From Eledone cirrhosa (lineage: Eukaryota): DNA of 64,000 nt. The first letter of the stretch is position 1. Each line of letters opens with the position of its first letter. The notes beneath the pieces were generated by a model. It was given only the letters and a program-made list of their open reading frames with translations. It did not search any database and had not been told where the DNA came from. The DNA is taken from NCBI GenBank assembly GCA_964016885.1, contig OZ024742.1, positions 346,084,001-346,148,000 on the forward strand, read 5' to 3'. The translations under genes were made by a program, and so were the position numbers. Of this stretch, positions 12,490 through 24,754 are shown in pieces.

Positions 12490-13328
12490 TTTTCTTTATT
12501 AACCACAAGGGTTTACATAAAGTAGACATTAAGAACAGTACAGGACAATACAGGACGGTACAAATGGGCATTTCTGCGTGTAAAAAAAACAGAGGATGAA
12601 ATAAAATAACAAAGAAAAATTCCCCAATAGGGGGGAGACTTCCGAGGGACATTTGTGGAGAAAGCCCATTAAAAGACCACAGTGGCCCTGACCACCAGGG
12701 CAAGTGCCCTCTCCCAGTTTTCCACCCTTAATTTACAGACACATACTCAGAGAAGGCCCATTCATTCGGGCCATACTTGCTTCTCTCACCCATCTTTCAA
12801 CAAAATGCTGGGAAGAGAGCACTTCCCTCTCTACCCTGATTTTCCTTTTCAGATGAAATTTGAAAAAGTTAATCAGGGCATCACCGAAGAGGTAAGTGCT
12901 CGTCTTCAGCCCTTTCAAACGTGTCCACCATACTATCTCTTTCGCCATGGCCACCAGACAGATAAAAACTGCCTGCCCTTCCCGGCTAAAGGAAGAGGGC
13001 GGGGCAATCCTCACGATGGACTCAGCTGATAGCTGGATCCGTCCTACACGTGACAGCAGGTGTTCGACATAAACCCACAAGTCAGCAATGCTCGGACACT
13101 GGACGAGTGCGTGCAGGACGGTTTCGTCGCCCTGTGCGCATCTCGGACATGCCCGGCTGACGGCACCTCTATGCCTGTAAAGTTTATCCCGAACTGGCAA
13201 AGCACCCCGGTAGCACTGCCAGGCCAGGGATTTCTGGAAGTTGTCCATAGGCCCCGGCCCGAAAGTCCTTCCGAAGAGATTGGCTAGTTGATTTTCGTCG
13301 ACGCCTAGAGTTTCTCCAAGTACGTCGT
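12489..13328 (-). mobile_element. Tx1-like LINE 3' fragment (ORF2 C-terminus + 3'UTR)
   Basis: Reverse complement of 34538-35376; ORF 12733-13248 has zf-RVT-like CPRC..ETVLHALVQC; AATAAA close to the end. Confidence 0.92.
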
Positions 13329-13655
13329 GAAGCTTTTATAGGGAGCAAACGCACTGCACAAAGCCAGTCCCATTCTCTTAACCAAGATGATATTTACCAA
13401 AAAGAAGAACAAGTCAACATCATTGGATACCATCAGGGTTGCAGGTGTTATATCAGAGTTTTCCTTCTCCTAGAATTCTGCCTTGACAAAGGCTAAGGGG
13501 TCATCTCTCCCGGTGATTTTGGATGGCCATTGACTCTTAAGAGCTCCTTTGCCCTTTGACAGGTTTTGTTTTTAGTCCTGCAGGATGCCCAAAGTCACCC
13601 TCCTCACCAAGAAACCTTGGTGGGGTTGCCAGTTTAGTCGCCAACGAACCAAATC
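13329..13655 (-). mobile_element. RTE-clade LINE 5'-UTR-like fragment
   Basis: Minus strand has CTAGGAGAAGGAAAACTCTGAT, a motif typical of RTE 5' regions, and stacked hairpins (CACCAAG/CTTGGTG). Confidence 0.55.
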
Positions 13656-13659
13656 CTAC

Positions 13660-14164
13660 GAACACACGATATCATAAAGAGCAAAAGACAACCTAAGTCA
13701 ATGAAAAACATCCTAACACATGCCAAAGTACTGCCAACCACAACAACGAAACCCACAGTAAAAAAATGCGATAGACCCAACTGTGGCATTTGCATCAACC
13801 TAATAGAGGGTTCGGAATTCTATTTCAAAGAAGGACAACGTTTTATAGTAAAACACAATTTCACATGCGCATCAGAAAATCTAATATATGTATTAACTTG
13901 CTCAGGTTGTCGAGAACAATACATAGGCCAGACCAAAACAGCCTCCGCCAACGCATGACTGTCCATAGATCCCAAATTAAAATACAGGAATACAGTAAAA
14001 TACGACTTAATGAACAGATTGATACCTGTGCCGCCCAAAATCATCCCAACTTCAGAATCTTTCCCCTCTACAGATTTAAAGTTATTGCCACCCACACCCA
14101 GCGCATCAGCAAGGAATCTTACTTTATTAACAAATACGGACCCCGTCTAAACACTTCACCCTAA
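13660..14164 (+). pseudogene. Penelope-like element GIY-YIG endonuclease fragment (frameshifted)
   Basis: CDRPNCGIC zinc motif, NFTCASENLIYVLTCSGCREQYIGQT, then RMTVHRSQI..ESYFINKYGPRLN in the next frame. Confidence 0.88.
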
Positions 14165-21698: not shown

Positions 21699-21732
21699 GT
21701 GGTCTTTCCCATCTTTTCCACTCCTTTTCAAC

Positions 21733-24433
21733 ATGACCTCACTCAGAATAGGCAGCATAAATGCGCGTGGCTTGGGGTCGCCATGGAAGCAGGGCCACCT
21801 GCTCAACGACCTCAGGTCACTAAACATAGATGTAGTGGCCATCAGCGAGACCAGAGTCTCCGAAGCACAGGCTTTCGCACCGATCTTCGGCGGCTACGAT
21901 GTGTACGCATCTCCCAGCCGTCCGGCATCGGGGGGAGGAGTTGCTGTGCTTTTTCGGAGAGGTTTGGATCTTGCCATACGGGCCATCTTCCTGGACCCGG
22001 AAGGTAAGTTGGTGGTGCTGGATGTGACCAGCGGAGACGGGCAAGCTTTCAGGTTAGTGGCCGTCTATGCCCCGACAGGAGCAGGGCGGCCTGATTTCTT
22101 CCGGCGTCTGGAGACCTTTCTTGGAACGTCCCGCTCTTTAGTGTTAGTGGGCGACTGGAACGGGATCTTAGATGCACGCTGGGATTGTGTGGGATTAGTG
22201 GATAGGGAAGGAGGGTACAAGAGTCTCACCAACCTGCTCAGACGTTTTGAACTGTTTGACAGGTACCGAATGGATTTCCCGAATGTACCAATGTGGATTT
22301 GGACAAATCGCATAGGGTCATCCAGATCATATCTAGATAGAGTATTTTGTAGGGAAATAGATAGGTCTAGCATAGGCTGTCCACAATTCAAGATAGTCAG
22401 CTACACGGACCACAAATTCGTGATCTGTGTGCTTGACTTAGATAGGCTTCATAGACGAGGACCCGGCTACTCGAAGCTAAACGCGTCCTTACCAGCGCGC
22501 AAGGCCTACAGAGACCGGATTAGCGAACTAGTTAAGCGGGCGTTGACGGGGGCCATCGTCAACAACAAGTGGTGGTTTGCTCTGAAAAGAGCAATTAGAA
22601 TAGAGTCCATTAGGTTTAGTAAGACTTTAGCAATAGAGAAAAATAGAGCAAAGGGAGAATTAGTTAGAAAATTAGATGAGGCGCTTAGCAAAGGCATCGC
22701 GACCGACGTACTTGCGGCGAAATTGGCCCTTGACCACGATCCGGTCTTTGGTGGACCACGACTGGCGCATGCTACTCGATCCCGGGCAAATGTGTGAAGC
22801 TTTTCAGCGACACTTCGCTCAACTGTTCGGGGGCAGTGGCGGGCCGGATCGAGGGATGGACTTTAGTGTCTACCTCGACGGACTGCCGCGGCTTTCGGCC
22901 ACTGAGGCGGAGTGTTGCGAAAAGCCGATAACAACCGCTGAAGTACGGGATGCAATGACTAGTTGCACAAGGGGTAAATCGCCTTGTTTGGATGGTCTGC
23001 CCTATGAACTTTACGTACAAATGCCAAACTTGTTCGGAGGCCTCTTGGCGGACGTCTAATGCAACTGGCAACAGAACGGGAGAATTCCCAGCTCTGTGAG
23101 CCGAGGAGCGGTGGCGCTGCTGAGAAAGGATCCGAACAAGGGGGATTACATAGATAATTTTAGGCCCATAACTCTGCTAAACACAGAGTTCAAGATTTTG
23201 GCCAAGGTGCTAGCAAAGAGGTTGGCGCTTGTCGTTGGTGGTCTGGTGGGAGAGGCACAGACATGCGCCATTCCCGACAGATCCATCCACGACAACCTCC
23301 ACCTCATGCGATACATCATAGAGAGGGTAGCTAGGGAACCTGGCACGGGTGGGTCTTTGATCAATTTAGATCAGTCGAAAGCCTTCGATAAGGTCGACCA
23401 TCGTTACCTAGCGGCAGTCCTGAGAGCGGCTGGCTTTGGGCCCGTCTTCAGAGGCTGGATCGCTGCCATGCACAGCAACATCTGCTCTGTAGTGAGAGTG
23501 AACGGTCACCTTTCGGAACCGTTCAACATGATGCGCTCGGTCCGCCAAGGATGTCCCCTCTCGTCCCTATTGTACGTATTGACTCTTGAGCCATTACTGC
23601 ACAAACTGGAGACGTTGAGGGGGTTCCCGCGCGAACTAGGATGCGGAAGATCCGTGTCAGCATATGCCGACGATGTCACCGTAGTGGTGTCGAACGCCAA
23701 ACACATCGAGGCGATCGGCACTACACTAAGAGAATACGAAGCGGTGACAGGAGCAATGATCAACCAGGAAAAGTCAGTGGGCCTGCAGCTCGGCACCTGG
23801 AGAGGCAGGTACATGCCGTCCAACAGCGTCGTCGGGCGCTGGACGGACCGACCGGTTAAATTGCTAGGGGTCTGGTTCGGTCCAGACCTCCAGACGGACA
23901 AAAACTGGGACGAGGTGACGAGCAGGGTGGCTTCTCTCACCCAGAAATGGGCCGAGAGGAAGCTATCCCTGAAAGGTCGAGCGGAGGTGGCTAACGCGTA
24001 CATCGCGTCCGTCATCTACTACCGCCTGACCGTCGTATCTTGTCCTAAGCCCCGCCTGACTGCGCTGGAGCGTTTGCTCTTTCGCTTCTTCTGGAAGGGA
24101 CGCGCTCCGATGGTCAGGCGGTCCATCTGCTGTCAACACCCGCTACGTGGCGGGCTGGGCATGCCGTGGCTGATGATGCGCAGACACGCGCTCAGGCTAC
24201 GACATCTCCACCTCTTCCTCGAGGGTGATCAGGTGTGGTCGCCGTTTGCTAGACACGTTTTTCCCCAGCTCGTCTCCTTGACGGAGCTGCAGTCCTGGGT
24301 CAAGCGAAGACCGAGAGGGAGCGCTTGGAGATTGGGATGTCTTCAGGCGCTCACAGCCCTCGACCAACCGGGCAATGTGATCGGTGGAAACTCCACCTTG
24401 GCGTTCTATAGGGGATTAGTGGAGGGGAAGAGC
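21733..24433 (+). pseudogene. Tx1-like ORF2 (APE endonuclease + reverse transcriptase), disrupted
   Basis: INARGL, ISET, VYAP, GDWN, YLDR, TDH (APE); NFRPITLLN, DQSKAFD, QGCPLS, YADD (RT); ~120-bp deletion near 22735 and a stop at ~23057. Confidence 0.92.
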
Positions 24434-24754
24434 AATATATATTATTATCATTTGATAATGCTTAAAAATGCTGAAACTGGTAATAGACAATTATTAAATA
24501 AATAAATAAATAAATAAATGCCATTGTTAATTAATAAATAAATCAACTAATACCTTAACACTTCACACAAAGTAAAATATTTCGTTTTAATCATTTTCTA
24601 ACCCAGAAAAAAAGAGAGAAATAAATAAAAAGGGAAAAAATTATTTTTTTCTTCCTTCCTAATAATCGTCTTTTTCTCCCTGTTTTCATATATATATATA
24701 TCCTAACATGTGTGCTTCCTCTCCACATTTTATTATTATTATTATTATTATTAT

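Follow-up and report, generated by a model that had tools for sequence, protein, structure and literature searches.

A Tx1-like LINE in the genome of Eledone cirrhosa appears to have been a single element that was split, after or during its insertion, by homology-independent end joining, a reading that its sequence supports. The two oppositely oriented pieces lie within the window, a stretch of 64,000 nucleotides (assembly GCA_964016885.1, contig OZ024742.1, forward-strand positions 346,084,001 to 346,148,000) from whose first letter all positions below are counted. The rearrangement is of an ordinary repair type, and probably there was no 11-kb flip, only the 1-kb tail of the element having moved. 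Its best explanation, which we regard as evenly poised between right and wrong, is a three-break intrachromosomal inverted insertion of a 987-bp piece, including the case of two successive inversions that reuse one breakpoint and give the same product.

The significance is modest: no host gene in the window is touched, and events of both candidate types are familiar. A split young retroelement lets a single genome reveal a rearrangement at base resolution and date it roughly, and the locus is a worked case of how a 1-kb inverted insertion can look like an 11-kb inversion. No report of this split Tx1 locus or of a genome-wide split-LINE census was found in a non-exhaustive check of the literature.

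The two pieces of the Tx1-like copy

The 5' piece of the split copy (copy 1) occupies 19497-24433 on the plus strand, 4.9 kb with ORF1, endonuclease and reverse transcriptase (RT), and ends at junction J2 (24433|24434). The 3' piece, 840 bp with the end of ORF2 and the 3' UTR, occupies 12489-13328 on the minus strand and ends at junction J1 (13328|13329). Both were compared with copy 2 (29771-35376, plus strand), an unsplit reference placed by alignment and tandem-repeat finding between (TTA)30 and (ATT)n. The 5' piece aligns to 29771-34536, its last base 24433 falling on 34536, and the minus-strand piece, read from 13328 to 12489, aligns from 34538 through the Tx1 3' end at 35376 (97.3% identity), leaving the G at 34537 as the sole base absent from both pieces. 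The preliminary description, which had called the pieces complementary with one base missing, was borne out by this alignment. An independent full-length homolog, P0005, covers 22718-24436 (plus) with residues 365-935 and 13326-12757 (minus) with residues 936-1128, and because these ranges are consecutive, the pieces abut at the codon level as well. The missing G sits in a CpG, where a G>A change would reduce the loss to zero, but only 3 of 127 such sites had changed in the ORF2 comparison.

The label Tx1, within the L1 group, is assigned from the architecture of the element. An APE endonuclease opens ORF2 (PF03372, E=1.4e-13, 21694-22794) and is followed by an RT of the L1 group (PF00078) and a C-terminal cysteine-rich zf-RVT domain (PF13966, E=2.8e-8 in the 3' piece); the RT scores 145-147 bits with human L1 ORF2p versus 51-73 bits with R2 proteins. 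A zinc knuckle of the form CX2CX4HX4C was found in ORF1 at 20758, and a CCHC knuckle in ORF1 is a feature of the Tx1 clade. The one named relative is Argonauta hians (69%), which places the host as probably an octopod. In prokaryotic genome contigs, where further Tx1 loci were sought as possible host contamination, eight pattern matches arose and none was confirmed.

Neither copy is whole. In copy 2, described earlier as intact, deletions have removed 244 nt of the endonuclease region and a further 18 nt, and small indels and an in-frame stop are present; the expectation that an inversion would rebuild a complete element fails on copy 1's own 121-nt deletion near 22737 and stop near 23058. The three internal deletions in the Tx1 copies have 2, 4 and 3 nt of microhomology (chance 0.004), which, set against the near-blunt junctions (0-1 nt), is a hint that the octopod germ line uses two routes of repair. 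The copies differ by about 3%, which the rate implied in PMC13282606 converts to about 4 My.

Complementary pieces, equal divergence and the lack of junction homology together argue for a single element split by end joining. The last 840 nt of the 5' piece differ from copy 2 at 22 of 840 positions and the 3' piece at 22 of 839 (Fisher p=1.0), the pieces meet with a 1-nt gap and no overlap, and homology at the junctions is 0-1 nt. The earlier preference for end joining over recombination between repeats was thereby upheld; NAHR was rejected, since the pieces do not overlap and no repeat is common to the junction flanks. That two independent copies, one 3'-deleted and one 5'-truncated, should have matching ends by chance or through a truncation hotspot is scarcely credible. 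LINE 5' truncation is common, three other truncated fragments lie in the block between the junctions, and for 11 of 120 homologous proteins the alignment starts or stops no more than 10 residues from the site; but two unrelated ends would agree within 1 nt on a ~5.9-kb element with a chance of about 5e-4, the five close homologs that span the site all continue through it, and the 11 ending nearby are distant (43-49% identical). Nor does the site form an unusually stable hairpin, as 36% (RNA) and 59% (DNA) of element windows fold more stably.

Both copies begin at the same base after (TTA)n. In copy 1 the 5' half of the target microsatellite is (TAT)13 (19457-19496, plus strand) and the 3' half is (AAT)26 (12410-12488, minus strand), both located by TRF, the latter reading (ATT)n on the element sense strand and keeping the same register to the element end that copy 2 shows. 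The statement that (TAA)n flanks the element on both sides holds for the opposite strand; on the sense strand the flanks are (TTA)n and (ATT)n. Two of two copies lie in (TTA)n in register, a sample of only two, where PMC4494074 takes one sequence type in over 20% of flanks as the criterion for target preference.

Junction sequences and base composition

Directly after J2 stands an 11-nt AT-rich motif (24434-24444, plus strand), the proposed site of a staggered break, with degenerate (ATT)n following at 24441-24452. An exact inverted copy lies at 12342-12352 (minus strand), inside a 12-nt AT palindrome (12342-12353), and here GC content changes, at 12335-12342, from 0.48 on the left to 0.23 on the right. 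These two marks make 12342 a probable third breakpoint. Between it and the microsatellite, 57 AT-rich nucleotides (12353-12409, minus strand; GC 0.23, compared with 0.21 from 24445 onward) would originally have flanked the Tx1 copy on its 3' side. The 11-mer, a low-complexity AT sequence, occurs again at 29198. A match of that length arose within 12010-12409 for 5 of 2455 AT-rich control starts (2 of 5000 under a Markov-1 null) and within 10067-12409 for 58 of 2455 (61 of 5000), so that the overall chance of the duplicate is 0.2-2.4%. Because GC steps are common beside such matches in the controls (3 of 5; 23 of 58), the step at 12342 adds little.

The two models differ in the ancestral joins that they imply. 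Under three-break insertion both are smooth in GC, 0.48|0.46 and 0.23|0.21, and both ends of the excision site can be traced, the Tx1 end lacking 1 nt and the flank end being marked by the 11-nt duplicate. A two-break inversion requires GC steps of 0.25 at both places, each matched by 4% of the background at 56 nt, and the step at its join 13329|24434 is reached by 1-2% of the background at 150-290 nt. A homolog with 12341 and 13329 contiguous was not found in Pfam, protein and in-window searches, and 12157-12341 gave no Pfam match in six frames. The near-nucleotide precision claimed for the rearrangement is shown only for the break inside Tx1; the non-Tx1 ends rejoin unevenly.

An origin in assembly or curation, with a contig cut and flipped or a chimeric molecule assembled, is very unlikely. 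An off-by-one edit could cause a one-base loss, and the end of the window has fold-back palindromes. However, no N bases occur anywhere in the window, none of five Hi-C ligation motifs lies near the junctions, and the junctions do not coincide with repeats; a cut-and-flip should moreover leave a smooth second join, of which none is seen, and a typical long read would exceed the block in length, in a region where long satellites have been resolved.

According to the three-break model, a full-length Tx1-like LINE would have entered a (TTA)n microsatellite and then decayed. Later, three nearby breaks would have arisen together, inside ORF2 with the loss of 1 nt, ~57 nt past the Tx1 tail at the AT-rich palindrome, where a staggered end would duplicate 11 nt, and 11 kb upstream. 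The 987-bp piece 12342-13328, comprising the Tx1 3' end, (ATT)26 and flank, would have been captured in reverse orientation by the upstream break, and the vacated gap sealed almost bluntly at 24433|24434, with the 11.1-kb block retaining its original orientation. The complementary pieces, the 1-nt gap, the 0-1 nt homology, the 11-nt duplicate and the composition steps are observed; the use of 12342 as a breakpoint, the simultaneity of the breaks and classical end joining are what we infer.

The same 11-mer at both sites and a non-inverted block would also be accounted for if the 987-bp piece were a 5'-truncated, 3'-transduced daughter retrocopy of copy 1, which later lost the matching inverted-repeat arm. 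This is highly improbable: it needs a deletion whose two ends agree with those of the daughter to within 1 nt and 11 nt, respectively, and the insertion site has no (TTA)n target and no poly(A) at 12342.

Orientation and contents of the 11-kb block

In the tests of orientation, which like those of GC and of the duplicate were chosen after the data had been seen, CA/CT tracts are C-rich on the plus strand in 12 of 13 cases in the flanks and 10 of 10 inside the block. The agreement loses strength as the tracts are clustered more coarsely, with p=0.003 at 300 nt, 0.2 at 500 nt and 0.25 at 1000 nt. With tracts masked, GC skew is -0.20 left of the block and -0.15 inside it, and the right flank as a whole has none (+0.02). 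Nine of 11 (TTA)/(AAT) runs read TTA on the plus strand, and the single long AAT run is that in the moved piece.

The main rival, a two-break end-joined inversion of 13329-24433 after insertion, perhaps with a deletion at the non-Tx1 breakpoint, is on the whole unlikely, while deserving serious weight. It needs the fewest breaks, and three breaks would be less likely a priori than two; it also accounts for the 1-nt gap and the 0-1 nt homology. Repeat-free inversions are a common class as well: 51 of 183 resolved balanced human inversions are reported to lack breakpoint repeats, 23 of the 51 with adjacent deletions or insertions or more complex events (10.1101/2021.12.20.472354), and an L1 is reported across one breakpoint only in about 41 of 252 human-chimp inversions (PMC2603318). 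However, the two-break inversion places the GC step of its ancestral join 13329|24434 in the top 1-4%, leaves the 11-nt duplicate to chance, and would have the microsatellites of the unflipped block oppose both flanks (p 0.003-0.25). Because of the duplicate, the smooth GC at both implied joins and the microsatellite orientation, three-break insertion appears to fit somewhat better. What stands of the 11.1-kb inversion of 13329-24433 proposed earlier is a Tx1 element split by end joining; an inverted block is not established, given the GC step, the duplicate and the tract orientation.

An inverted block is also predicted if insertion and inversion were coupled, a break 6 kb away having primed the RNA internally during Tx1 insertion, so that element and flank were never colinear. 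L1 intermediates are reported to recombine with distal breaks (10.1101/2025.09.17.676864), in one described case with separate junctions bearing two pieces of cDNA 12 nt apart (10.1101/2024.12.14.628481), and J2 lies 7 nt from degenerate (ATT)n, as near as only 1.8% of positions. Against this stand the tract orientation and skew, the lack of priming homology at J2 and precedents that come from human cells only, and the chance of such coupling is slight indeed.

The block begins at J1 with a sequence of ~45% GC (13329-13640) that has no copy in the window and no credible match: there was none in Pfam in six frames, among longer proteins (one of six frames searched) or to the 120 Tx1 homologs, and Atlas scores for a 47-residue part were 0.85 or less. 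P0122 (E=8.6e-17), the single match among 1.84 billion representatives with one frame searched, is a Thr/Ser repeat protein whose score adds up from weak matches of 23-30 bits, and it was rejected on that ground; a resemblance to PIN-like or Crypton motifs was unsupported by searches. Nor is the sequence part of the adjacent Penelope-like fragment (13644-14166, plus strand), a 5'-truncated GIY-YIG end with one frameshift. Six proteins are 60-70% identical to this fragment, of which five carry PF26215 and three the GIY-YIG domain PF01541. Two Dong/R4-like LINE fragments follow on the minus strand. Fragment A (16577-17718), 5'-truncated and in (TTA)n, is 97.5% identical to 24729-25869; fragment B (17722-19456) consists of 17722-18358 and 19186-19456, split by an 827-bp piece of 61% GC (18359-19185) whose ORF gave no credible match. 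Outside the rearrangement, a Dong/R4-like LINE at 24729-28546 (minus strand) has an open 1216-codon ORF with RT and restriction-like endonuclease motifs, found by ORF, domain and motif search. In the window, Rfam gave only sub-threshold microsatellite matches and ARAGORN no tRNA genes; several fold-back palindromes lie at its end (60.5-64 kb).

Comparison with known systems

Microsatellite-targeting Tx1 families have been described, namely Kibi in (TC)n and Koshi in (TTC)n (PMC4494074), and the present copies resemble them as two-ORF APE/RT elements inside a simple repeat, but differ in their (TTA)n/(TAA)n target, seen in two insertions only. Dong is reported to target TAA (PMC3812793), and the Tx1-like copies share this target with their Dong/R4-like neighbours but use the opposite strand. 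Both L1-Tx1 and Dong-R4 are described as recently active in Octopus vulgaris (PMC13282606).

The geometry also recalls the twin-primed 5' inversion of L1, in which the internal break of the 5' part lies outermost and the 3' part starts almost at the next base, so that complementary ends arise naturally; among 273 reported L1 cases the ends had short deletions in 61%, duplications in 33% and blunt joins in 7%. On this account 12354-24433 would be a single insert of 12 kb whose 5' part is inverted and which carries transduced sequence on both sides, 6.2 kb at the 5' end and a short stretch at the 3' end. The 11-mer, readable as a direct repeat at 12343-12353, would be a TSD within the 10-20 bp range given for 5'-inverted L1 (PMC4245944), and the GC step at 13329|24434 would disappear; the TSD would measure 3 nt directly at the Tx1 tail, and 11 nt once a 3' transduction of 56 nt is granted. 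Unlike in L1, however, the parts are not directly joined, 6168 bp of old genomic sequence standing between 13328 and 19497, and the 5' end is normal, still in its own (TTA)n target. The inverted part would measure 11.1 kb, where those reported for L1 measure 666 bp at the median, 88% of them being shorter than 1.5 kb. Microhomology or insertions mark the primed end in 87% of the reported L1 cases; there are none here, and the bases after 24433 share 0 nt with the next Tx1 bases. The transcript would moreover traverse three AATAAA signals, the GC match of 12341 to 13329 would go unexplained, and 5' inversion is reported almost only for L1 in human cells. Twin priming is thus highly unlikely, and even taken together with a rearrangement driven by the element's own insertion through a second break it remains quite improbable. 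If true, either would extend mechanisms documented mainly for human L1 to the mollusc germ line, and a twin-primed 11-kb inverted cDNA would be of unprecedented length.

Repeat-free NHEJ inversions of the cut-and-paste and staggered-break types (PMC7584159, 10.1101/2021.12.20.472354, PMC2603318), as described, likewise lack junction homology, with a LINE at one breakpoint only, and the staggered-break type is marked, as here, by a short inverted duplication. In a plain inversion so described there are two junctions with the duplicate at both block ends, whereas here 24434 pairs with 12342, 1 kb outside the supposed block.

The closest likeness to the proposed three-break insertion is the human ins(9) (PMC12914905), whose report states that three-break inverted insertions are often mistaken for inversions. 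There, as would be the case here, an excised piece was reinserted inverted in the same chromosome, and the junctions are near-balanced, one break having lost and another having duplicated very few bases; its breaks are given as one clean, one with a 2-nt deletion and one with a 2-nt duplication. That insertion spans 17.8 Mb and was proven by reads and FISH, whereas in Eledone cirrhosa 987 bp would have moved 11 kb, as read from one sequence, and, unlike in ins(9) as reported, it is a split retroelement that serves as the marker.

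Repeat setting and the Tx1-like element

The window is composed of repeat-only eukaryotic DNA, satellites with LINE and Penelope-like remnants in between, and contains zero N bases. Satellite arrays, with units listed as 13, 59, 22/44 and 8 nt, occupy 1-10066, 40667-42450, 42802-57172 and 57183-59408, and two of the four have TGTGTAGT/TAGTGTGAGT-like motifs in common on opposite strands. Minus-strand remnants include an older LINE with RT (35500-38400; RT 36371-37030), a second Penelope-like GIY-YIG fragment (38866-39342) and a degenerate LINE-like stretch without Pfam match (10950-11800). 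Just downstream of a Penelope-like fragment, 14374-14653 contains locally duplicated stretches of 83 and 45 nt as well as a 19-nt tandem. At 60565-63900, fold-back palindromes cluster with inverted and direct duplications (61829-61944, 62019-62820, 62818-63715, 60565-61755). Several of these stop at (AT)n runs, and the cluster reflects either real template switching or a sequencing artefact.

The Tx1-like element is present as copy 1, split into a 5' piece (19497-24433, plus strand) and a 3' piece (12489-13328, minus strand), and as unsplit copy 2 (29771-35376, plus strand). The closest named relative of its ORF2 is an Argonauta hians protein (69% identity), which points to an octopod as the probable host. 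It carries APE endonuclease, RT and zf-RVT domains and a CCHC knuckle in ORF1, and is closer to human L1 ORF2p than to R2; by these domains and the L1/R2 match, it fits the Tx1 type within the L1 group. Both copies have the same first base after (TTA)n and the same last base before (ATT)n, in register. Microsatellite-targeting Tx1 families, such as Kibi and Koshi, are already known (PMC4494074), and TAA is the reported Dong target (PMC3812793); a (TTA)n-targeting Tx1 family is absent among the targets named in these two sources. In Octopus vulgaris, recent activity is reported for L1-Tx1 as well as for Dong-R4 LINEs (PMC13282606). One (TTA)n tract at 16577-19496 holds Tx1 copy 1 and two Dong/R4-like fragments as three stacked insertions, and here and at 29679-35420 (TTA)n targets are common to Tx1-like and Dong/R4-like elements, inserted on opposite strands. 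Another LINE in (TTA)n (24729-28546, minus strand), presumably Dong/R4-like from its architecture and target, has an uninterrupted 1216-codon ORF (RT, YMDD, RHD and PD..D motifs) and is possibly a recently active copy. Within a Dong/R4-like fragment, an 827-bp piece (18359-19185, 61% GC) stands in place of 9 nt; it contains a ~190-nt internal tandem duplication (18777-19189), gave zero matches in Rfam, Pfam and Atlas, and has a start that may resemble an rDNA promoter/ETS.

The split of copy 1

In self-alignment, 19457-24433 (plus) follows copy 2 as far as 34536 and 13328-12478 (minus) follows it from 34538, leaving one copy-2 base, 34537, unassigned between them. A full-length outside homolog places residues 365-935 on the first piece and 936-1128 on the second. 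Divergence from copy 2 is equal (22/840 in the 5' piece, 22/839 in the 3' piece; p=1.0), the chance of two pieces meeting so closely is ~5e-4, and all five close homologs spanning the break site run through uninterrupted; alignments end within 10 residues of the break in 11 of 120 proteins, all 11 distant. On this alignment evidence, the two pieces are one split element. Two independent Tx1 copies would require coincidences and form the least credible account, and a daughter retrocopy with a matching deletion, which also requires them, is very unlikely.

The near-nucleotide precision of the split, claimed in the preliminary description, holds for the break inside Tx1. Copy 2, described there as intact, has 244- and 18-nt deletions, indels and a stop, and copy 1, said to be rebuilt complete by inversion, carries a separate 121-nt deletion together with a stop. 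Hairpin stability at the break site is not unusual. The element contains two near-identical copies of a ~15-nt motif (22700-22714 and 34535-34549), 11 nt of which match exactly, with one copy at the split point and the other at copy 2's 18-nt deletion; this was noticed post hoc, and 11-nt exact matches are expected by chance (E=1.8).

Recombination between repeats, already rejected in that description, is ruled out by the lack of overlap between the pieces, of any repeat found in common between the junction flanks, and of homology beyond 0-1 nt at the rearrangement junctions. Microhomology at three internal deletions of the two copies is 2, 4 and 3 nt (chance of at least 2 nt at all three, 0.004), so the rearrangement junctions appear blunter than local deletions. 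We infer classical end joining, and end joining was the correct class of mechanism to propose. Gaps, ligation motifs and repeats are absent from the junctions, and we consider an assembly artefact improbable.

Which piece moved

A simple two-break inversion of the block 13329-24433 requires only its two breaks and is of a common type: among 183 resolved balanced human inversions, 51 are reported without breakpoint repeats (10.1101/2021.12.20.472354), and ~41 of 252 human-chimp inversions with L1 at a single breakpoint only (PMC2603318). It predicts that the 13329 end formerly adjoined 24434. Composition was tested because 13329-13640 could not be identified (Pfam, six frames; protein searches, one frame). 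The implied join shows a GC step from ~45% to ~21%, a size reached at 3.8%, 2.1% and 1.0% of background positions (60-, 150- and 290-nt windows). In addition, a search for a target-site duplication showed that the 11 nt at 24434-24444 have a minus-strand copy at 12342-12352, which lies 57 nt past the (AAT)n tail and inside a 12-nt AT palindrome. Among 2455 AT-rich control starts, 5 had an 11-nt match in 12010-12409 and 58 in 10067-12409 (Markov null, 2/5000 and 61/5000). The best GC change point within 12160-12409 is 12337 (range 12335-12342), and with the 987-bp piece 12342-13328 put back between 24433 and 24434, both ancestral joins are smooth (GC 0.48|0.46 and 0.23|0.21). Match and step are not independent, since a step lies beside the match in 3/5 and 23/58 of the matched controls.

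CA/CT microsatellites of at least 4 units are C-rich on the plus strand in 12/13 cases in the flanks and 10/10 inside the block, so that the block, flipped back, would oppose both flanks (p=0.003, 0.2 and 0.25 with tracts merged at 300, 500 and 1000 nt). Masking the tracts gives a GC skew of -0.20 to the left of the block and -0.15 within it; to the right it is -0.41 in the first 285 nt but +0.02 over all six segments. Moreover, 9/11 (TTA)/(AAT) runs read TTA on the plus strand, and the sole long AAT run lies within the 987-bp piece. These signals support an unflipped block, although not decisively. The CA/CT bias spans >50 kb (10067-40600 and 59409-64000; 22/23 tracts C-rich on plus).

Simple inversion leaves three things to chance, namely the 11-nt duplicate, the step in GC and the matching orientation, and is a possible but doubtful explanation; we regard the proposed 11.1-kb inversion with precise ends as unproven, and a 1-kb inverted insertion as probably the likelier event. 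Insertion-coupled inversion has reported human precedents (10.1101/2024.12.14.628481, 10.1101/2025.09.17.676864) but predicts a reversed block, and its likelihood is slight. Twin-primed retrotransposition would produce the same geometry with complementary ends, and could take the 11-mer as a direct duplication, but the median length published for inverted parts is 666 bp, microhomology or insertions mark the primed end in 87% of reported cases (see also PMC2912911), and 5' inversion is described as nearly confined to L1, in human cells (PMC4245944); we hold it to be highly improbable.

A proposed three-break origin and known rearrangements

A 1-kb inverted insertion via three breaks is the explanation we prefer and has, in our view, an even chance of accounting for the split, all confidences here being judgement rather than computation. 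One break would lie inside Tx1, with 1 nt lost, a second at the AT palindrome past the tail, with 11 nt duplicated in the style of a staggered cut, and a third 11 kb upstream; 12342-13328 would have been excised at 24433|24434 and reinserted at 12341|13329, all three breaks being joined without homology. Short duplications are reported as marks of staggered cuts (PMC7584159). The staggered site has a degenerate (ATT)n only 7 nt away, a proximity seen for 1.8% of positions, so a LINE endonuclease cut might, speculatively, be its source. On this account the rearrangement is younger than the Tx1 insertion; the copies are separated by a JC distance of 0.027-0.031, which the rate implied in PMC13282606 converts to roughly 4 My.

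Either event type would be a further instance of known structural change, in gene-free repeat DNA. Three-break inverted insertions are reported to be often taken for inversions, and a human example has similar junctions, one clean, one with 2 nt lost and one with 2 nt gained (PMC12914905).
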